From a virus (Duplodnaviria; Heunggongvirae; Uroviricota; Caudoviricetes), in IMG/VR virus record IMGVR_UViG_2718217884_000001, positions 1 through 37,524 of that record: a stretch of DNA of 37,524 nucleotides; one strand, given 5' to 3'. The translations under genes and the position numbers were made by a program. Within the stretch, counting starts at the first letter, position 1; the number at the start of each line of letters is the position of its first letter. Positions 2,458 to 36,827 of the stretch are shown one piece after another. Under the pieces are notes generated by a model. The model worked only from the letters and a program-made list of their open reading frames with translations, ran no database searches and had not been told where the DNA came from.

Positions 2458-3483
2458 TTAACGGTTCCAGTTGAGATTGTGAAGCGGGTTTTTTGTCACT
2501 GCATCTTCCAGGTGGTCGGGTGCGAAGTGGGCGTAAATCATTGTCATTTTAATATCGGCGTGGCCCAGAATATCGCGCAGTACCAGTATATTTCCGCCGT
2601 TCATCATAAAATGACTGGCGAAAGTATGGCGCAGAACGTGGGTGCATTGGCCCTCTGGCAAGTCAATGCTTGCCCGCTTGACTGCACGCTCAAAGGCTTT
2701 TCTGCATGGCGTGAATAACTTCCCTCGGTTCTTTGGTAACTCGTCATACAGCGCCTGAGATATAGGAACCGTTCGGTTTTTCTTGCCCTTTGTTTTGGTG
2801 TAGGTGATTCGGTATTTAGATAACTGATGGCCCTGCAGGTTTTCGGCTTCACTCCAGCGGGCGCCGGTAGCTAAGCAGATTTTTGCAATCATGAGCAGGC
2901 TGGGGTTTTCTGAATCAGCGCAGGCATCCAGCAGGCGTTTAATTTCTTCCGGCGCCAGGAACGCCAGTTCCCCCTCTGCGATTTTAAATGTTGGAAGCCC
3001 GGCGAGTGGGTTGGGGGCTGACCAGTGGCCCAGCTTTTTCAGCGTGCCAAAAACTGATGATAGGTTGCGTTGTTCAAGGTTTACCGTGCGGGGCTTAACT
3101 GGCGACATAGGCAAGCCATCTTCATTTTTGACTTCACCTTTTAGGCGTGCTTCACGGTATTTTGTAAAGTCACCGGCAGTCAGCTCCGAGGCAATGGGAT
3201 CACCCAGGCCATTACAAATAATGTTAAGTTTTGCCATCAGGCGCTTGGGGTCAGCAAGAGTCTGTCCGTAAAGTGAATGCCACTGCTTAATTACTTCTGA
3301 CAATTGGCGCCGATCATCCTTTTCGCCTAGCCATGGCTTTTTGTTCACTTCATCCATTGTGAAGTTTTCGAATGCTATGGCCTCGCCTTTCGTCGCAAAT
3401 TGCTTGCGCACGCGCTTGCCATCGCGCCCGCTAGGGTAGCACTCACACAACCATTTCCCGTTTGGCTGTTTTCTGATGGTCAT
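2458..3483 (-). CDS. int: Phage integrase (tyrosine recombinase, P2/186 Int family)
   Basis: 341 aa; C-terminal motifs HVLRHTFAS and MIYAHF (catalytic His/Arg/Tyr region); adjacent to attL; followed by GTGCCGCC direct repeats. Confidence 0.88.
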   Translation of the reverse strand: MTIRKQPNGKWLCECYPSGRDGKRVRKQFATKGEAIAFENFTMDEVNKKPWLGEKDDRRQLSEVIKQWHSLYGQTLADPKRLMAKLNIICNGLGDPIASELTAGDFTKYREARLKGEVKNEDGLPMSPVKPRTVNLEQRNLSSVFGTLKKLGHWSAPNPLAGLPTFKIAEGELAFLAPEEIKRLLDACADSENPSLLMIAKICLATGARWSEAENLQGHQLSKYRITYTKTKGKKNRTVPISQALYDELPKNRGKLFTPCRKAFERAVKRASIDLPEGQCTHVLRHTFASHFMMNGGNILVLRDILGHADIKMTMIYAHFAPDHLEDAVTKNPLHNLNWNR

Positions 3484-5841: not shown

Positions 5842-6068
5842 TGGCTGATTCAATGGACCTTGTACAGCAGCGCGTTGAAGAAGAACGCCCGCGCCATATC
5901 CACACCGCCCGCAATAAAACGCCGGGCGTTTCCCGTGTTCTCTGCATTGATTGCGATGCGCCGATCCCGCCAGCTCGCCGCCGCGCCATTCCGGGCGTGC
6001 AGTGCTGCGTCACTTGTCAGGAAATCGCAGAGCTGAAAGGCAAACACTACAACGGGGGTGCTGTATGA
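5841..6068 (+). CDS. TraR/DksA-type C4 zinc-finger protein
   Basis: 75 aa with CIDC...N17...CVTC four-Cys motif; common upstream of gene A in P2-like phages. Confidence 0.65.
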   Translation: MADSMDLVQQRVEEERPRHIHTARNKTPGVSRVLCIDCDAPIPPARRRAIPGVQCCVTCQEIAELKGKHYNGGAV

Positions 6069-6925
6069 GCACTATTCTGAAATGGGCGGGAAATAAAACC
6101 TCCATCATGCCGGAACTGATTAAGCATCTTCCTGCTGGCACGCGACTGGTTGAACCTTTCGCGGGTTCATGCGCTGTAATGATGGCGACAGACTATCCTC
6201 ATTATCTTGTCGCGGATATTAACCCAGACCTGATAAATCTTTTTAAGCATATTGCATTTGACTGCGAGAAATTTATTTCAAATTCAAAAGGATTCTTTTC
6301 AGGCACAAATAGCGCTGAGTCTTATTACAACATCCGTCAGGATTTTAATCATTCGGCTGAAACCACCGATTTCTGGAAAGCTGTATTTTTCCTTTATCTT
6401 AATCGCCATGGTTATCGTGGGTTGTGCCGCTATAATTTGAGCGGTCATTTTAATGTCCCTTACGGTAATTATAAAAATCCGTATTTTCCTGAAAGTGAAA
6501 TACGCGCTTTTGCAGAAAAGGCTCAACGCGCAACGTTTATCTGTGCCAGCTATGACGAAACACTGGCGCTGCTGCAGGCTGGTGATGTTGTTTATTGTGA
6601 TCCGCCATACGATGGCACATTTAGCGGTTATCACACTGCCGGTTTTACAGAAGACGATCAGTATCATCTGGCGTCTATTCTTGAGCGCCGGTCATCAGAA
6701 GGTCATCCGGTTATCGTGTCCAACAGCGACACGTCCCTGACCCGTTCGCTTTATCGTAATTTTACCCGCCATCGCATCACTGCAAAGCGCAGCATGGGTG
6801 TGGCTGCCGGCGAGAGTAAATCTGCAGCAGAAATCATCGCCACAAAATCAGCTGGCTGGTTTGGTGTCGATTTGGCGTCCGGTCCAGATATCTCGGTGGA
6901 AACTGAGGTGCGGGCGTGGCAGTGA
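6065..6925 (+). CDS. dam: DNA adenine methyltransferase (Dam family, N6-A MTase)
   Basis: [23 protein letters not shown]...FAGSCAVMM (AdoMet motif) and DPPY catalytic motif; ATGA overlap with upstream gene. Confidence 0.85.
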
Positions 6926-9324
6926 GTAAATTCACATTACATAATGCACCAACCACCGGCGGCTCGAATGAGGCCGCCGTGGCCTTTTCATGGAATAACC
7001 CCAAAAAAGCGGTTAACCCATATCTGGACCCGGCGGAAGTTGCGCCGGGGTCTGCGCTTTCAAACCTGATTGCTCTTTACGCTGCGGATAACGAGCAGGA
7101 GCAGCTGCGCCGTGAGGCGCTGAGCGATGAGGTCTGGGAACGCTATTTCTTCAATGAATCCCGTGATCCTGTCCAGCGCGAAATGGAGCAGGACCGGCTG
7201 ATTAGTCGTGCCAAAATGGCGCGCGAGCAGCAGCGTTTTAATCCCGATCTGGTCATTCTGGCTGACGTTAACGCCATGCCGTCCCATATCAGCAAGCCTC
7301 TGCTGGAGCGGATTAAATATTTCCATAGCCTGGGCAGAGCAAAAGCCTATTCCCGCTACCTGCGCGAAACAATTAGGCCCTGTCTTGAGCGGCTGGAGCG
7401 CGTGCGTGACAGTCAGGTGTCTGCCTCTTTCCGGTTCATGGCAAGTCATGACGGGCTGGAGGGGCTGCTGGTACTGCCTGAAATGAATCAGGATCAGGTC
7501 AAGCGTCTTTCCACGCTGGTTGCGGCTCATATGAGCATGTGTCTTGATGCGGCCTGCGGTGATCTGTTTGTCAGCGACGATGTTAAACCAGAAGAAATCC
7601 GCCAGGCATGGGAAAGGGTTGCAGCAGAGGCGATGCGCCTTGAGATCATCCCGCCTGCGTTTGAGCAGTTACGCCGCAAAAAGCGTCGACGCAAGCCGGT
7701 GCCCTATGAACTGATCCCACCGTCGCTGGCGCGGATGCTGTGCGCGGACTGGTGGTATCGCAAATTGTGGCAGATGCGCTGCGAGTGGCGGGAGGAACAG
7801 CTGCGTGCTGTCTGCCTGGTCAACAAAAAAGCGTCCCCGTATGTCAGCTATGAAGCCGTGATCCACAAGCGCGAGCAGCGCCGCAAATCGCTGGAGTTCT
7901 TCCGCTCACATGAGCTGGTCAACGAAGACGGTGACACGCTGGACATGGAAGACGTGGTGAACGCCAGTAACAGCAACCCGGCACACCGCCGTAATGAAAT
8001 GATGGCCTGTGTTAAGGGACTGGAGCTGATAGCGGAAATGCGCGGAGACTGCGCAGTGTTCTATACCATCACCTGCCCGTCACGCTTCCACGCAACCCTC
8101 AACAACGGCAGACCTAATCCGAAGTGGACCAGTGCCACAGTCCGGCAGAGCAGTGACTATCTGGTTGATACGTTCGCCGCTTTCCGCAAGGCAATGCACA
8201 AGGCCGGGCTGCGCTGGTATGGCGTCCGCGTTGCGGAGCCGCACCATGACGGCACAGTGCACTGGCATCTGTTGTGCTTCATGCGCAAAAAAGACCGCCG
8301 TTTCATCACTGCGATGCTGCGCAAGTTTGCCATCCGTGAAGACCGCGAGGAGCTGGGCACCAACACCGGGCCGCGCTTCAAATCCGAGCTAATCAACCCG
8401 CGCAAGGGCACGCCGACCAGCTACATCGCCAAATACATCAGCAAGAACATCGACGGGCGTGGGCTGGCTAAAGAAATCAGCAAAGAAACCGGCAGATCGC
8501 TGCGTGACAGTGCCGAGCATGTCAGCGCCTGGGCGTCACTGCACCGTGTCCAGCAATTTCGTTTCTTTGGTATTCCAGGGCGTCAGGCATACCGCGAGCT
8601 GCGCTTGCTGGCTGGTCAGGTGGCGAGAGTGCAGGGCGAACGCAAAGCGGGTGCGCCGGTACTGGATAATCCGCGTCTGGATGCGGTACTGGCGGCGGCT
8701 GATGCGGGCTGCTTTGCCACCTACATCATGAAGCAGGGCGGCGTGCTGGTTCCCCGCAAACATCACCTTGTCCGCACGGCTTATGAGCTTAACGACGAAC
8801 CGAGCGCCTACGGCGATCACGGTATCCGTATCTATGGCATCTGGTCCCCGATTGCAGAGGGCAAGATTTGCACGCACGCGGTGAAGTGGAAAAAGGTTCG
8901 TAAGGCCGTTGATGTTCAGGAGGCGGCAGCCGACCAGGGCGCTTGCGCCCCTTGGACTCGTGGCAATAACTGTCCCCCTGTTGAAAATCTGAACAAATCA
9001 GGGGGGGATTTACCCGATATTAAAACTATGGATGAGAGGGAGCTGCAGGAATATCTCCACAACATGGGCCAGAAGGAACGGCGGGAGCTGACAGCCAGGT
9101 TAAGGCTGGTAAAACCGAAGCGGAAAAAAGCATATAAACAGACTATTTCGGATCAGCAGCGCCTGCAGCTTGAGGCAGAACTGAGTTCCAGAGGGTTCGA
9201 TGGTAGCGAGTCAGAGATTGACCTGCTTCTGCGCGGCGGCAGTATTCCGTCAGGTGCCGGGCTGCGTATTTTTTACCGCAACCACCGTCTGCAGGAAGAT
9301 GACAAATGGCGTCAGTGGTACTGA
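6916..9324 (+). CDS. A: Replication initiation endonuclease (P2 gpA family, rolling circle)
   Basis: 802 aa, GTG start overlapping dam stop; contains conserved segment around HxH and tyrosine-containing YIAKYISK characteristic of gpA. Confidence 0.88.
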
Positions 9325-9485: not shown

Positions 9486-9674
9486 ATGCAGGATTATCTT
9501 TTGGAGTCGTTGAAGCTCCAGCGCATTGATTTTTTTATCAAGCTTGTAGCGGCTAGTGAGTGTAGCGACGAAGAAAAGCGGCTGGCTATCCAGTGGGTGT
9601 CCGAACTGACCGACGAGCTGATGGCGAAAATCCGCAGCCATGAATACTGCCGGTCAATGGATGTAACCAGTTAA
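9486..9674 (+). CDS. Small SOS-controlled protein (candidate antirepressor, Tum-position)
   Basis: 62 aa from ATG 9486 with GGAGGG RBS; directly downstream of LexA box; the longer 9378 start would precede the promoter. Confidence 0.5.
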   Translation: MQDYLLESLKLQRIDFFIKLVAASECSDEEKRLAIQWVSELTDELMAKIRSHEYCRSMDVTS

Positions 9675-9685
9675 GGGGAATCTGT

Positions 9686-9919
9686 ATGCGCATTGAAATA
9701 ATGATCGATAAAGAGCAGAAGATTAGCCAGGCTACACTGGACGCCCTTGAATCCGAGCTTTACCGTAATTTGCGCCCTCTGTATCCCAAAACAGCAATTC
9801 GTATCCGTAAGGGCAGCGCCAACGGCGTTGAGCTGAGCGGGTTAAAACTGGATGAAGATAAAAAGCGAGTGATGGAAATAATGCAGCAGGTCTGGGAGGA
9901 CGACAGCTGGTTACATTAG
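9686..9919 (+). CDS. DinI-family protein
   Basis: 77 aa; MRIEIMIDKEQKISQATLDALESELYRNLRPLYP...EIMQQVWEDDSWL aligns with DinI by eye. Confidence 0.75.
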   Translation: MRIEIMIDKEQKISQATLDALESELYRNLRPLYPKTAIRIRKGSANGVELSGLKLDEDKKRVMEIMQQVWEDDSWLH

Positions 9920-10052
9920 CGAACGTTGCGGACGATAAAACTGGTTTTTACCGTCCGCAAGGTTGAACAACGAGCCACGCGAGGCGTTAGCGCTGTTGTG
10001 CATGTCTATGCCGCATGAAATCGCATGATCGTTTGAGGATCGTTTTTGCTCA

Positions 10053-10078
10053 GGCCCGCCAGAACTGGCGGGCTTTTG
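10053..10078 (+). terminator. Rho-independent terminator after SOS operon
   Basis: GCCCGCCAG-AACT-GGCGGGC hairpin followed by TTTTGCTT. Confidence 0.55.
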
Positions 10079-10122
10079 CTTATGTCATGCAGGTGCATGA
10101 AAACCACTACACAAAGCGGGCA

Positions 10123-10141
10123 GGCGTGGCGGGGATACGAG
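10123..10141. other. Candidate cos (cohesive end) site
   Basis: GGCGTGGCGGGGATACGAG; first 13 nt identical to my recollection of the 186 cohesive end GGCGTGGCGGGGAAAGCAT; position near Q 3' end. Confidence 0.35.
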
Positions 10142-10240
10142 CGCGCGCTGGTTGGTTTGGGACAGCTTTCAAGAGCTATGTCTCATTTTTGCTTGGACGG
10201 ATAGATTACTCTACTCAAAACATGTGAAATGGAGATAAAC

Positions 10241-10423
10241 ATGCCGTATCAAGTTAAAGCTTATTGTCCTTGTTGTGGGGTCGCTGCAAGTGGTGATCTG
10301 AACAAAATTGAAGAGGTATTTGGTTTTAGAATGATGGAAGGGGAACGTTTGATTCCACAATCATATTGTCGCAGATGTCGTCGATTAAGATGTTCTCCAA
10401 ATGATAAAAAGTGCGGAGCATAA
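10241..10423 (+). CDS. Cys-rich zinc-ribbon protein, unknown function
   Basis: 60 aa from ATG 10241 (GGAG 6 nt upstream); CPCCG...CRRCRRLRC; AT-rich codons; 3-nt gap to next gene. Confidence 0.55.
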   Translation: MPYQVKAYCPCCGVAASGDLNKIEEVFGFRMMEGERLIPQSYCRRCRRLRCSPNDKKCGA

Positions 10424-10426
10424 AAG

Positions 10427-10696
10427 ATGGCGGTCTATTGTGTAACGTATGACTTGAAAGCTCCAGGCAAGAACTATGATGATGTTTTTACCTATCTCAA
10501 AAAGTTTGACTACTGCAAACATTTAGAATCCTTTTGGTTAATCGATACCACGCTTTCTGCAGCGCAATTGCGTGATGGACTTAAAGCAAATGTTGATAGT
10601 AACGATGTGATCTTTGTTGCTCGTTTACAAAAATCTTGGGCCTCATTAAATTATTCTTGTTCTACATGGTTAAAGGCTCCTGGTCGAAATTGGTAA
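10427..10696 (+). CDS. 89-aa protein of unknown function, co-operonic with zinc-ribbon ORF
   Basis: GGAG RBS; N-terminal beta-strand-like VYCVTYDL; AT-rich; followed by terminator hairpin. Confidence 0.55.
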   Translation: MAVYCVTYDLKAPGKNYDDVFTYLKKFDYCKHLESFWLIDTTLSAAQLRDGLKANVDSNDVIFVARLQKSWASLNYSCSTWLKAPGRNW

Positions 10697-10703
10697 ATAA
10701 ATT

Positions 10704-10730
10704 AAGGCCGCATGATTAGCGGCCTGTTTG
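10704..10730. terminator. Bidirectional terminator hairpin between small cassette and Q
   Basis: GGCCGC-ATGATTA-GCGGCC with T-rich tracts on both strands. Confidence 0.5.
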
Positions 10731-10758: not shown

Positions 10759-11805
10759 CTATTCATCACCTAAATTTAACTTGTAGGGTTCAAAGCGTAT
10801 TACATCTTCTTGTAACCAATCATTGAGTTCTTGCAGCCTTTTTTGGAGGGGGATTAGTTCGTTTCTTACAAAAACAAGGCTGGCCTTTTCCACATCCCCA
10901 AAACCCCCAACATTGCTTGGCATGATCCCCATCATCTGTGGCGGCACACGGTGCGCTGCCATCATGTCATCGCGGCTCACGTTCTTGATGTTCAGAAACT
11001 CATCCTTTGCTGCTACCTCTGATAGTGGGATTATCTGAATGCCGTCCTTCTTCCCGTTGGGCGAATACATAAACAGGTTGCGGAAGTTGCCTGGCCCTTT
11101 GGCGCTTTTCATGGCCTGGCGGATGTTGTTCACGTCCTCCTGGTTCTGCGCGGCGTCGGTCATGTACATGATAAAGCCCGCGTGGCTGCCGTTGATGTAG
11201 TACTTGCGGCGGAACAGCGTGGCGGACTCATTCAGAAGGGCGGAAGGGATAGCGGACAGGTATTCTGGTAGTCCATAAATCTCCTGGTTTAAGTCCGGCT
11301 CCATCAGGTGGAAGATGCTGCCTTTGGTGAACTCGTAGGGCTGCGTGGTCATGCCGTATTGCACAAACCAGTAAGTGTCGAGGTCGGTCCCGCGGCGGGT
11401 GTATTTCGCCAGCGATGGCTCCAGTGACAGAATGCCGCCCAGCCGGTTCGTCCGTTTCTCCAGATAGGCATTACCAAACACCAGGTAGTCCTGCACGAAG
11501 CGGCTGAATGCCTGCTGGCTCAGCAGCGGATGCGGGATAAACGTGCTGGTCAGGATGTTGCGCTTAACGGCAATCGGTGAGCTGTGATGCACGGCGGCGC
11601 GGTAGGTGCGAGCCAGGCCGTCAAAGCTCACGGGCGGCTCATACCATTTGTCCATCTGCACGCATTCCACATAGTCCAGCAGTTCGCGGCGGTCCAGTAC
11701 CGGGATAGGATCGCCAAAGCTGAATGCTTCGGCTTGAGTTGTGTTCTTCTGCTGCGCGGCTTCCTGTACTGGCGCGGTACTGGTCAGGGCGTCGTGTTCA
11801 CTCAT
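10759..11805 (-). CDS. Q: Portal protein (P2 gpQ)
   Basis: 348 aa; position and size match P2 Q; start overlaps P stop. Confidence 0.88.
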   Translation of the reverse strand: MSEHDALTSTAPVQEAAQQKNTTQAEAFSFGDPIPVLDRRELLDYVECVQMDKWYEPPVSFDGLARTYRAAVHHSSPIAVKRNILTSTFIPHPLLSQQAFSRFVQDYLVFGNAYLEKRTNRLGGILSLEPSLAKYTRRGTDLDTYWFVQYGMTTQPYEFTKGSIFHLMEPDLNQEIYGLPEYLSAIPSALLNESATLFRRKYYINGSHAGFIMYMTDAAQNQEDVNNIRQAMKSAKGPGNFRNLFMYSPNGKKDGIQIIPLSEVAAKDEFLNIKNVSRDDMMAAHRVPPQMMGIMPSNVGGFGDVEKASLVFVRNELIPLQKRLQELNDWLQEDVIRFEPYKLNLGDE

Positions 11806-13571
11806 TAAAAAATCTCCACAATATTGCTGGTATTGGCGGATTCGCCCTGCAGCGGTTCGTTAAACAGTGCGTGCATCGTTGCCCAGGCCAAATCTGCGTG
11901 GCTGGCTTCTTCGCTGCGGCTCGCTTCGTAGGTAGGGCGGTTGCCGCTGGCGGTAGTGGCACGGCGGATTGCCATAAAGGACTGCGCAATGTCAGTGTGC
12001 CCGGCGTCAAACTCCAGACGACGGTGGCTGATAATGTCGTACGCTTTGAGCACCAGGGCGTTTTTGACGTTGGGGTTGTAGACAAACTCCCGCACGGCAG
12101 GAAAGAACGCTTTTACGTTCTCATAAACACCGTGACCGACGCCGGTCGAGTCGATGCCGATATAAGTCACGTTGTACTGCTGCGTCAGCTTTTTGATGGC
12201 ATCAGCCTGGGCGCGGAAGTCCATCCCGCGCCACTGATGACGCTCCAGAATGCGGAACTTTCCGCCAGGTACAGTGGGTGGTGCCATAACCACGCAGCCT
12301 GCGCTGTCACCGTTCTGCGTACCTTTCGCTGGGTCGTAACCGATCCAGACTTCCCGCCAGCCAAACGGGCGCAGCGCCAGCGCCTGAAAATCGGTCCAGA
12401 CTTCCCAGCTGTCCACCATGCACGCCTGCAGCTCGCTGAGCGGGAATACTGACGCCAGATCGTCAATAAATTCGCACATCAGCAGGTTCTGGTATTCGTC
12501 CGGGCTGTACTCCATGCGCAGTTGGTCCAGGTCGAACAGGTTACAGCCTCCGCGCACCGCATCCTCCACGGTGACGATCTGGCGGTACTGTCCGTCAGGG
12601 CAGAGCAGGCCGCGCGCAAGGTTGCTGTGGGTCAGGTCAATATCCACCTTGTCCGCTTTGGCGCGGCCCCGATTAAACAGCGCACCGGACCAGAACGGAT
12701 AGGCACTGTGAGTCAGGCTGGACGGCGTGGAAAAGTAGGTTTGTCGCCATTTTTTGTGAATGGCCATCCCGGAGGCCACCTTGCGCAGCTCCTGGAATTT
12801 CGGTATCCAGAAATACTCATCAAGATACAGGTTGCCGTGGTAGCTCTGCGCAGTACGGGCATTGGTGCCGAGGAAGTACAAAGCTGCGCCATTGGGCAGC
12901 ACCATGGGATCGCCTTTCAGCTCAACATCCACCTCTTTGGCAAAGTCGATGATGTACTGCTTAAAAACGTGCGCCTGCGCCTTACTGGCAGAAAGGAAAA
13001 TCTGGTTGCGCCCGGTCAGCAGGGCGTCAATCAATGCTTCACGGGCAAAATAAAACGTGGCGCCAATCTGGCGCGACTTGAGCAGATTACGGATGCGGTT
13101 TGTTTTTCCGGCTTCAAACCAGTGACGCTGATAGTCGAACATTGAGGCATGGAAGACTTCTTCCAGCTTTTCGATCTGTTCGTCGGAGAAAACGTTCTTT
13201 TCCGGCTGCCTGCGCGGACCTTTGTTACGGTTGTCTACTTTCGGGTTTAAATCTGCTTCGTTCCCGCCGTCGTTAAATTTTCCGATCCGGGCGTGACGCT
13301 CTGACTGGCGCGCCAGCAGGTCAATTTCCTTGAAGTCTTTCCCTTCTTTCTGCTCCTTCATGATGAGCTGGCAGTAACGTGCGGCGGTGGTGAGCTGCAT
13401 CTGATCCAGCGGCCCATAGTCGCCCCACTTGTCGCGCTTCTTCCAGCTGTGAACGGTTGCAACTTTTTCGCCCAGCATTTCAGCAATGCGGGCTACGCGG
13501 TATCCCTGAAAGTACAGCAGCATGGCCTGCCGACGGGGATCGAGGTCTGCGGGGGTCAGTGTCGTGTTCAT
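11805..13571 (-). CDS. P: Terminase large (ATPase) subunit (P2 gpP)
   Basis: 588 aa; upstream of Q on same strand as in P2. Confidence 0.88.
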   Translation of the reverse strand: MNTTLTPADLDPRRQAMLLYFQGYRVARIAEMLGEKVATVHSWKKRDKWGDYGPLDQMQLTTAARYCQLIMKEQKEGKDFKEIDLLARQSERHARIGKFNDGGNEADLNPKVDNRNKGPRRQPEKNVFSDEQIEKLEEVFHASMFDYQRHWFEAGKTNRIRNLLKSRQIGATFYFAREALIDALLTGRNQIFLSASKAQAHVFKQYIIDFAKEVDVELKGDPMVLPNGAALYFLGTNARTAQSYHGNLYLDEYFWIPKFQELRKVASGMAIHKKWRQTYFSTPSSLTHSAYPFWSGALFNRGRAKADKVDIDLTHSNLARGLLCPDGQYRQIVTVEDAVRGGCNLFDLDQLRMEYSPDEYQNLLMCEFIDDLASVFPLSELQACMVDSWEVWTDFQALALRPFGWREVWIGYDPAKGTQNGDSAGCVVMAPPTVPGGKFRILERHQWRGMDFRAQADAIKKLTQQYNVTYIGIDSTGVGHGVYENVKAFFPAVREFVYNPNVKNALVLKAYDIISHRRLEFDAGHTDIAQSFMAIRRATTASGNRPTYEASRSEEASHADLAWATMHALFNEPLQGESANTSNIVEIF

Positions 13572-15634: not shown

Positions 15635-16285
15635 ATGAGCCTGAGTCCCGCACGGCAACACCGCCTGCGCATTCAGGCCGAACAGGCCGCCCGTGAGGGC
15701 GGCAGTGTTCGCCATGCGTCGGGTTATGACCTGATGCTGCTGCAGCTGGCAGAAGACCGCCGCCGCCTCAAGGGCGTTCAGTCCACGGTGAAAAAGGCGG
15801 AAATCAAGGTGGAACTGCTGCCGAAATATTCCGCCTGGGCGGAGGGCGTGCTGGCTGCCGGAGGTGCGCAGCAGGATGACGTGCTGATGTACGTGATGCT
15901 GTGGCGTATCGACGCCGGTGATTATGCCGGTGCGCTGGAAATCGGACGCCATGCACTGCTCCATGGCTGGGTGATGCCGCTGGGCAACCGTAACGTGCAG
16001 ACCGTGCTGGCAGAAGAAATGGCAGACGCGGCGCAAAGCGCTCTGCTTACCGCTGCCGGTTTTGATGCTGATCTGCTTCTGCAGACGCTGGACCTGACCA
16101 CCGATCTTGATATGCCGGACCAGTCGCGGGCGCGCCTGCATAAAGCCATCGGCGCTGTACTGAGCGAAAGCAACCCGGCGTCTGCCCTGAATCACCTTAC
16201 CCATGCGCTGCAGCTTGATCCCCGCTGCGGTGTGAAAAAAGAAAAGCAGCAGCTGGAGCGCAGACTGCGCAATGACAGCCGCTAA
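15635..16285 (+). CDS. M: Terminase small/endonuclease subunit (P2 gpM)
   Basis: 216 aa, follows N as in P2. Confidence 0.8.
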   Translation: MSLSPARQHRLRIQAEQAAREGGSVRHASGYDLMLLQLAEDRRRLKGVQSTVKKAEIKVELLPKYSAWAEGVLAAGGAQQDDVLMYVMLWRIDAGDYAGALEIGRHALLHGWVMPLGNRNVQTVLAEEMADAAQSALLTAAGFDADLLLQTLDLTTDLDMPDQSRARLHKAIGAVLSESNPASALNHLTHALQLDPRCGVKKEKQQLERRLRNDSR

Positions 16286-36462: not shown

Positions 36463-36509
36463 TTTGGTGGAGCTGGCGGGAGTTGAACCCGCGTCCGAAA
36501 TTCCTACAT
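36463..36509 (-). repeat. attR core: 47-bp direct repeat (within intact ssrA 3' end)
   Basis: Identical to 2294..2340. Confidence 0.9.
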
Positions 36510-36827
36510 CCTCGGTACTACATGCTTAGTCAGTCTTTACATTCGCTTGCCAGCTGCGGACGGACACGCCACTAACAAACTAGCCTGATTAAGTTTTAAC
36601 GCTTCAACCCCAGGCAGGGCTTCCACGCGATCTCTTTTGGGTTTGACCTCTCTTGATCCCCGTCCTAAGAGCGGAGGCTAGGGAGAGAGGGCTCTAAGCA
36701 GGTTATTAAGCTGCTAAAGCGTAGTTTTCGTCGTTTGCGACTATTTTTTGCGGCTTTTTACGAGGCCAACCGCCCCTCGGCATGCACCTTGGGTTTCGCA
36801 AATCCCGTCGAATCCAGAATCAGCCCC
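36465..36827 (-). ncRNA. ssrA: tmRNA (SsrA), intact
   Basis: Reverse complement begins GGGGCTGATTCTGGATTCGACGGG and ends GGTTCAACTCCCGCCAGCTCCACCA; tag region GCAAACGACGAAAACTACGCTTTAGCAGCTTAA (ANDENYALAA) present. Confidence 0.95.

Follow-up and report, generated by a model that had tools for sequence, protein, structure and literature searches.

A probable P2-family cos site beside a cargo hotspot in a Fels-2-like prophage of Escherichia coli

Probable cohesive-end sequence

The 19-nt sequence GGCGTGGCGGGGATACGAG, located within the window (the whole 37,524-nt stretch of viral DNA analyzed here, IMG/VR record IMGVR_UViG_2718217884_000001), is highly likely to be the functional cos site of the prophage that carries it, judging from sequence comparison. 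The feature is very probably an ordinary, already known P2-family cos that lies inside a known cargo hotspot. The assignment is based on sequence identity, conservation under selective constraint, the boundaries of the conserved block, and the intact packaging genes, from which we infer cleavage itself. The position of the feature is as follows.

10123–10141, + strand: 19-nt cohesive-end sequence GGCGTGGCGGGGATACGAG, identified by identity with the cos of phage SEN8 and similarity to that of phage 186

A search of the window with GGCGTGGCGGGGATACGAG gave this site as the sole match even when three mismatches were allowed, with a chance expectation of 0.01. An earlier note on this DNA had claimed that the sequence shares its first 13 nt with the cohesive end of 186, and comparison with the annotated 186 cos (NC_001317, bases 1–19; GGCGTGGCGGGGAAAGCAT) confirmed this, with 13 of the first 13 and 15 of all 19 nucleotides identical. 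P2 cosL (GGCGAGGCGGGGAAAGCAC) agreed with the window 19-mer at 14 of 19 positions. Bases 1–19 of Salmonella phage SEN8, annotated as 'putative cos site', were identical to the window 19-mer throughout (19/19), and the last base of the SEN8 record aligned exactly with window position 10122. The genome announcement of SEN8 names the same 19-mer as the cos site, identified during annotation, and SEN8 is a phage isolated as particles whose genome is headed by this 19-mer (PMC5427200). The window 19-mer has the G+C-rich form of P2-family cos sites, GGCG(A/T)GGCGGGGA followed by 6 nt, and its bases 14–19 read TACGAG, versus AAGCAT in 186 and AAGCAC in P2. Of 5426 complete E. coli genomes, 1254 contained the cos core.

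Two other observations were made during these searches. Many relatives also contain a look-alike sequence, GGCGTGGCAGTGAGTAAAT (6913–6931 in the window), with 11 of its first 13 bases in agreement with the 19-mer. This was considered as a second cos and rejected, being the start codon region of gene A (MAVSKF); its conservation is explained by its being coding sequence. A metagenomic contig, IMGVR_UViG_3300011853_000021, carries two exact 26-mer cos cores in opposite orientation, 3.2 kb apart, and this could represent a misassembly, or tandem or inverted prophages.

Prophage and packaging genes

The window contains a complete, intact Fels-2/186-like (Peduoviridae) prophage adjoining ssrA in E. 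coli. The genes and elements that define the surroundings of the cos site are listed below.

2458–3483, − strand: integrase
6916–9324, + strand: replication gene A (gpA homologue; Pfam Phage_GPA, 2.5e-131), left conserved anchor of the hotspot
9486–9674: small ORF between gene A and the DinI-like gene
9686–9919, + strand: DinI/Tum-like gene (Pfam DinI, 8.8e-24), the last gene before cos
9922–9964, + strand: terminator-like stem-loop directly 3′ of the DinI stop codon (inverted repeat with 19-nt arms, 89% complementary)
10759–11805, − strand: portal gene Q (Pfam Phage_portal, 2.3e-17), right conserved anchor of the hotspot
11805–13571, − strand: terminase large subunit, gpP homologue (Pfam Terminase_6N, 1e-64; Terminase_6C, 7e-50; Terminase_5, 3e-27)
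15635–16285, + strand: terminase small subunit, gpM homologue (Pfam Phage_term_smal, 2.7e-39)

The genes Q, P, O, N, M, and L were intact and arranged in P2 order and orientation, with O, N, M, and L on the + strand, and the head and packaging genes were all full length. A cognate gpM/gpP-type terminase is encoded on the same element as cos; the gpP homologue is predicted to be the nuclease that cuts cos, and the gpM homologue the cos-recognition subunit. The cos site is placed between the accessory region on the gene A side and Q, which is read towards cos. The proposal of the earlier note that the site is cos is supported by the conserved P2/186/P4 core, by its correct orientation and position, and by the intact adjoining genes Q, P, and M. 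The position of the DinI/Tum-like gene matches that of the DinI genes of SEN8, SopEPhi, and RE-2010, and that of 186 tum. The stem-loop that follows this gene lies outside the conserved island around cos.

At the prophage end, a tmRNA gene (36465–36827, − strand; tag ANDENYALAA) lies beside an ogr/delta-like zinc-finger gene, and the smpB-ssrA flank is 99–99.7% identical to E. coli. By these two matches, the element lies beside ssrA in E. coli, as expected of a Fels-2-type prophage. SopEPhi, a relative of Fels-2, reportedly integrates at ssrA. For this type of ssrA prophage, which is common in E. coli, the position of cos would give the packaging site and with it the ends of the virion DNA. 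An ORF at 5951–6925 (+ strand), immediately upstream of gene A and partly AT-rich, encodes motifs of a Dam-type DNA methyltransferase (FAGS...DPPY) and probably represents a further accessory gene.

Conserved sequence around the cos site

The P2, 186, P4, and SEN8 records were circularized, and their junctions were aligned with the window. In this alignment with P2, 186, and related cos regions, by which the earlier note had proposed to judge the motif, it was conserved as the cos core. The shared core consists, from left to right, of TGCA..(C/G)TGCAT(T/G)AAAACC, about 9 variable bases, AAGCGGGC(A/G), the 19-mer, and (T/C)GCGCGC, with a size of about 30 + 19 + 7 bp in the five aligned sequences. 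In the window, it reads as a TGCAT-AAAACC box, AAGCGGGCA, the 19-mer, and CGCGCGC. A block of this composition matches what passages of PMC9594776, PMC3931495, and PMC5694545 credit to Ziermann & Calendar (1990) as the '55-bp cos core' of P2-family phages. The window site is thus embedded in the core of about 55 bp that is common to P2, 186, and P4. The core is part of a longer conserved island, the elements of which are as follows.

9996–10148, + strand: conserved cos island (about 153 bp; −127 to +26 counted from the first base of the 19-mer), delimited by base conservation and the blastn edge
10000, 10013, and 10023 (10000–10027), + strand: three GCATG repeats, candidate binding elements of the small terminase subunit
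10054–10073, + strand: perfect 9-bp inverted repeat GCCCGCCAG-AA-CTGGCGGGC followed by TTTT, inside the cos island
10086–10105, + strand: CATGCAGGTGCATGAAAACC box, start of the 55-bp core, aligned with GGTGCATTAAAACC in P2 and ACTGCATTAAAACC in 186 and P4
10116–10122, + strand: GCGGGCA, putative left nick half-site (top-base frequency 0.96–1.0 in 68 loci)
10142–10148, + strand: CGCGCGC, putative right nick half-site and last conserved bases (frequency 0.90–1.0, +20 to +26)

The island at 9996–10148 is predicted to be the complete packaging signal. Left of the core, GCAT(G/T) repeats were common to the window, P2, 186, P4, and SEN8. Two further copies of GCATG occur at 10086 (minus strand) and 10095, giving five in all, and GCATG is nowhere denser in the window (Poisson P about 3e-6). 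The TGCAT/GCATG columns were invariant across the helper phages and the P4-like satellites.

The inverted repeat was present in all of the five aligned sequences but P2, and also in the P4-like satellites. Its pairing was kept through two compensatory changes between helper phages and P4-like satellites, and 80.6% of cells were paired, versus 29–52% when the partners were slid. It resembles a terminator in the window, where TTTT follows on the 3′ side, and it has no T-run in 186. The segment may be a conserved hairpin that serves as a terminator, a protein site, or both.

GCGGGC(A/G) was found at the left nick in P2, 186, P4, and SEN8, and (T/C)GCGCGC to the right of the 19-mer in P2, 186, P4, and the satellites. 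GCGGGCA at the left nick and GCGCGCG, read from the bottom strand at the right nick, have 5 of 7 bases in common, and the two motifs may represent the two half-sites of one nuclease.

Extent of the predicted packaging signal

To define the relatives of this site, IMG/VR was searched with the portal protein, which gave 598 relatives and 80 recovered related loci, and with the exact 26-mer, which gave at least 120 further loci. In 68 distinct loci anchored on the 19-mer, the top-base frequency was 0.65–1.0 from about −127 to +26 and 0.34–0.48 outside this range on both sides. On the right, it fell from 0.90 at +26 to 0.59 at +27 and to 0.34–0.5 beyond. In blastn analysis against GenBank phages, homology to about 80 Peduoviridae records stopped at window positions 10148–10151. 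Six P4-like satellite loci from other enterobacterial species had the same architecture, and similarity was gone right after TGCGCGC. P4 and P2 had no common sequence past +26. P4 is packaged by the P2 terminase.

These conservation edges indicate an asymmetric packaging signal, in which sequence is constrained over about 127 bp towards gene A but over no more than 7 bp towards Q. The view of the earlier note that the region between cos and Q is needed for packaging recognition is contradicted beyond these 7 bp by the end of conservation at +26 and by P4. A cosmid study found that longer flanks raise the efficiency of P2 transduction and left unstated which side matters, so that the Q side may still contribute to packaging in a non-sequence-specific manner. 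The signal from −127 to +26 would offer a ready-made design for cosmids or transducing particles with Fels-2-like helpers.

The same data bear on whether the 19-mer could be a decayed, non-functional cos remnant in a defective prophage, a mark of ancestry at which no cutting occurs. In one genome with identical cos and cassette, the small ORF upstream of the DinI gene is marked as frameshifted in RefSeq, as might be seen in a defective element. However, the site and 150 bp around it were nearly invariant in the 68 distinct loci and the flanks were random, a pattern that indicates purifying selection and not decay. The full-length head and packaging genes, and the presence of the same 19-mer at the head of the genome of the particle-isolated SEN8, also argue against such a remnant, which we consider improbable.

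Cargo between cos and the portal gene

According to the earlier note, a cassette of small genes separates cos from Q. Two ORFs were indeed found there, followed by a hairpin.

10241–10423, + strand: 60-aa zinc-ribbon ORF (CPCC...CRRC...C), cargo gene 1 (phrog_19700, 8.8e-44; family of unknown function)
10427–10696, + strand: 89-aa Cas2-fold ORF, cargo gene 2 (phrog_1090, 5e-30; family of unknown function)
10705–10725, − strand: G+C-rich, terminator-like hairpin with T-runs on both sides, between the cargo and the portal stop codon

The interval between cos and Q is 617 bp in the window, versus 167 bp in P2, for which the note had rightly described it as short, and 176 bp in 186. Among the related loci, 133 distinct ones had a cos core together with a portal gene, and in these the portal stop codon lay 138 to 3516 bp past the last base of the 19-mer, with a median of 1709 bp; the 617 bp of the window is on the short side of this distribution. 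The distance exceeded 250 bp in 118 loci and was below 250 bp in 15. Gene content between the two anchors varied among close relatives, and the sequence was random from +27 onward, as is characteristic of a hotspot. Isolated phages also have genes at this position, namely SEN8 (a hypothetical gene and an HNH endonuclease), SopEPhi (orf14 and orf15), and RE-2010 (an AIPR protein). 'Empty' relatives have a spacer of about 150 bp that ends in a terminator. This spacer is wholly absent from the window, indicating that the cassette has taken over the whole interval between +27 and the portal stop codon. The hairpin at 10705–10725 belongs to the cassette itself and sits where P2 has tQ and 186 has tW.

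The position is described in the literature. A passage of PMC5694545 has it called a hotspot since Dodd & Egan (1996). For the cos-proximal gpA-gpQ locus in E. coli, Rousset et al. (2022) reported 1,650 arrangements in 18,150 occurrences, together with a P4 hotspot that directly adjoins cos. Their Table S5 contains the arrangement 'hypothetical + DinI + hypothetical' with WP_024221516, which is the 89-aa protein of the window as annotated in E. coli LS45.

These results show that phages of this clade as a rule carry cargo on the Q side, a normal and already described state, and the claim that the cassette occupies an unusual place does not hold. Such cargo is tolerated because the sequences recognized in packaging are apparently situated on the A side of cos. 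The alternative is that cos is real and the cassette is exceptionally placed, interrupting a sequence required for packaging recognition, with the phage being impaired or its mode of recognition unusual. The gene-free intervals of P2 and 186 and the short spacer kept in 15 of the 133 loci are in line with this, but it is very unlikely in view of the longer intervals in the other 118 loci, the end of conservation at +26, the genes carried there by isolated SEN8, SopEPhi, and RE-2010, the lack of homology between P4 and P2 past that point, and the published hotspot with this very arrangement in Table S5.

The conserved block is extremely unlikely to owe its conservation to protein coding instead of packaging: an ORF at 10015–10227 (+ strand, 70 aa) matches phrog_28685 at 2e-32, and genes for a 'hypothetical protein' that overlap this stretch have been annotated in Yersinia phage MLG42 and Klebsiella phages, but conservation begins upstream of the ORF at 9996 and stops inside it at 10148, the PHROG match spans only residues 1–54, the last 80 nt or so of the ORF are unconserved, P4 and the satellites conserve this DNA block as well, and P2 and 186 annotate the 19-mer as cos. 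The ORF was rejected as a real gene; with conservation ending mid-ORF at +26, it looks like an annotation artefact of conserved non-coding cos DNA.

The 3′ end of the portal gene (10759–10900) is AT-rich, with a GC content of about 0.39, and the portal matches of many relatives end at query residues 341–345 of 348. These two observations suggest that recombination at the right-hand edge of the cargo module may take place within the final codons of Q.

Properties of the cargo genes

The GC content of the cassette is 0.36–0.39, versus 0.52–0.60 in the flanks. The zinc-ribbon ORF has GGAG 8 nt upstream of its ATG, and cargo gene 2 starts 3 nt past the stop codon of cargo gene 1. The two genes are translationally coupled. 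No sigma-70-like site was detected between cos and the zinc-ribbon ORF in a promoter scan. The zinc-ribbon protein has 11 homologue clusters, all in enterobacterial P2-like contexts, and its ORF is left without annotation by RefSeq in identical E. coli loci.

The 89-aa protein matched Pfam Cas2 with E = 0.002 and 18.7 bits, below the gathering cut-off of 23.8. Its AF2 model (pLDDT 90.8) adopts a Cas2-like ferredoxin fold. At least 12 of the top 15 PDB matches are named Cas2 chains, and the rest are unnamed 'hypothetical protein' or RNase entries (TM 0.55–0.65); VapD and GhoS rank below the Cas2 chains. The residues V6-T7-Y8-D9-L10 were invariant across 21 homologues, Y8-D9 representing the conserved Asp at the end of strand 1. 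No cas1 or CRISPR array was found next to the gene, the neighbors of which are the zinc-ribbon ORF and the portal gene.

Homologues of the 89-aa protein were scarce, forming just 34 clusters, including Klebsiella and Enterobacter P2-like prophages. The Cas2-fold gene occurs alone in an integron-like cassette array of Pseudomonas abyssi and near a transposase in Vibrio harveyi, and was also found in Mycolicibacterium. The zinc-ribbon gene was rejected as a constant partner, because the Pseudomonas, Vibrio, and Mycolicibacterium homologues are not accompanied by it. One related phage has the zinc-ribbon gene without the Cas2-fold gene. The pair was 100% identical in 8 complete E. coli genomes, LS45 and L3Cip3 being examples of strains whose locus is identical, and Klebsiella Gegevirus phages have cos and the whole cassette in common with the window at 78% identity.

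PADLOC gave only weak Cas2 and Cas2b matches (E of 1e-3 and 0.015) for the 89-aa protein and nothing for the zinc ribbon, and an NCBIfam scan of the cargo proteins gave no match; neither search placed the cargo in a recognized anti-phage system. The cargo may, as a reasonable guess, act as a small toxin of the nuclease type or as a defense module. The Cas2-fold gene is mobile by itself, including in integron-like cassette arrays, and the sharp +26/+27 boundary is common to helper phages and P4-like satellites. Two further readings are put forward tentatively and are regarded as rather unlikely. In the first, the zinc-ribbon/Cas2-fold pair may be an anti-phage or toxin-antitoxin-like hotspot module. 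In the second, the +26/+27 boundary may be where the minimal cos truly ends on the right, and terminase-made ends together with the conserved cos island might then drive the swapping of cassettes.

Proposed packaging mechanism

After excision and replication, the gpM/gpP terminase would recognize the A-side elements of the island, the small subunit presumably binding the GCATG repeats, the inverted repeat, and the TGCATGAAAACC...AAGCGGGCA box. On the Q side, CGCGCGC, as the mirror of GCGGGCA, would serve as the second nicking half-site for the large terminase. Both strands would be nicked 19 nt apart to leave 5′ overhangs, and with cuts staggered in this way virion DNA would begin at 10123, which would be the left end of the linear genome with the cassette as its first genes. 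Since nothing past +26 is needed sequence-specifically, the DNA between +27 and the portal stop codon is free for cargo, and in the window the low-GC two-gene cassette with its own terminator takes the place of the spacer of about 150 bp in 'empty' relatives. The 7-bp constraint on the Q side would explain how cargo can start 8 bp after the cut.

Comparison with known phages and satellites

Among the closest known systems is the SEN8/Fels-2 group (Felsduovirus; SopEPhi and RE-2010), in which the 19-mer and its flanks (about −127 to +26) are identical to those of the window, the DinI-cos-cargo-portal layout is the same, and a Fels-2-type attachment region lies next to ssrA. These phages differ in cargo, the window having the zinc-ribbon and Cas2-fold proteins.

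Coliphages 186 and P2 have 19-nt 5′ cohesive ends. The first 13 nt of the 19-mer are the same in 186 and the window, and both phages share with the window the TGCAT-AAAACC...AAGCGGGC left flank, the GCGCGC right flank, the upstream GCAT repeats, and the orientation to Q. On the other hand, they differ in bases 14–19, in the gene-free spacer of 167–176 bp before Q, and in carrying their own cargo (old/tin and orf97) on the A side of cos.

P4 and the P4-like satellites have the same core architecture and a variable hotspot directly after (T/C)GCGCGC, as also described by Rousset et al. (2022). The satellites differ in their 19-mer variants, which end in …AAAGCAC, …AGAGCAT, or …ATAGCAT. A Psu-based scan of species-representative genomes yielded six P4-like satellites, all with such other variants and none with …ATACGAG, and the first 120 IMG/VR matches to the 26-mer (114 P2-like and 6 unclassified) included no P4-like satellite. 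The six satellites thus provide no independent helper-satellite match for this variant.

With respect to the P2-like gpA-gpQ hotspot, the two cargo proteins of the window differ in having no match to a known defense family in PADLOC, whereas the organization is the same, with variable low-GC cargo between conserved anchors and an arrangement that is already included in the table of Rousset et al. (2022).
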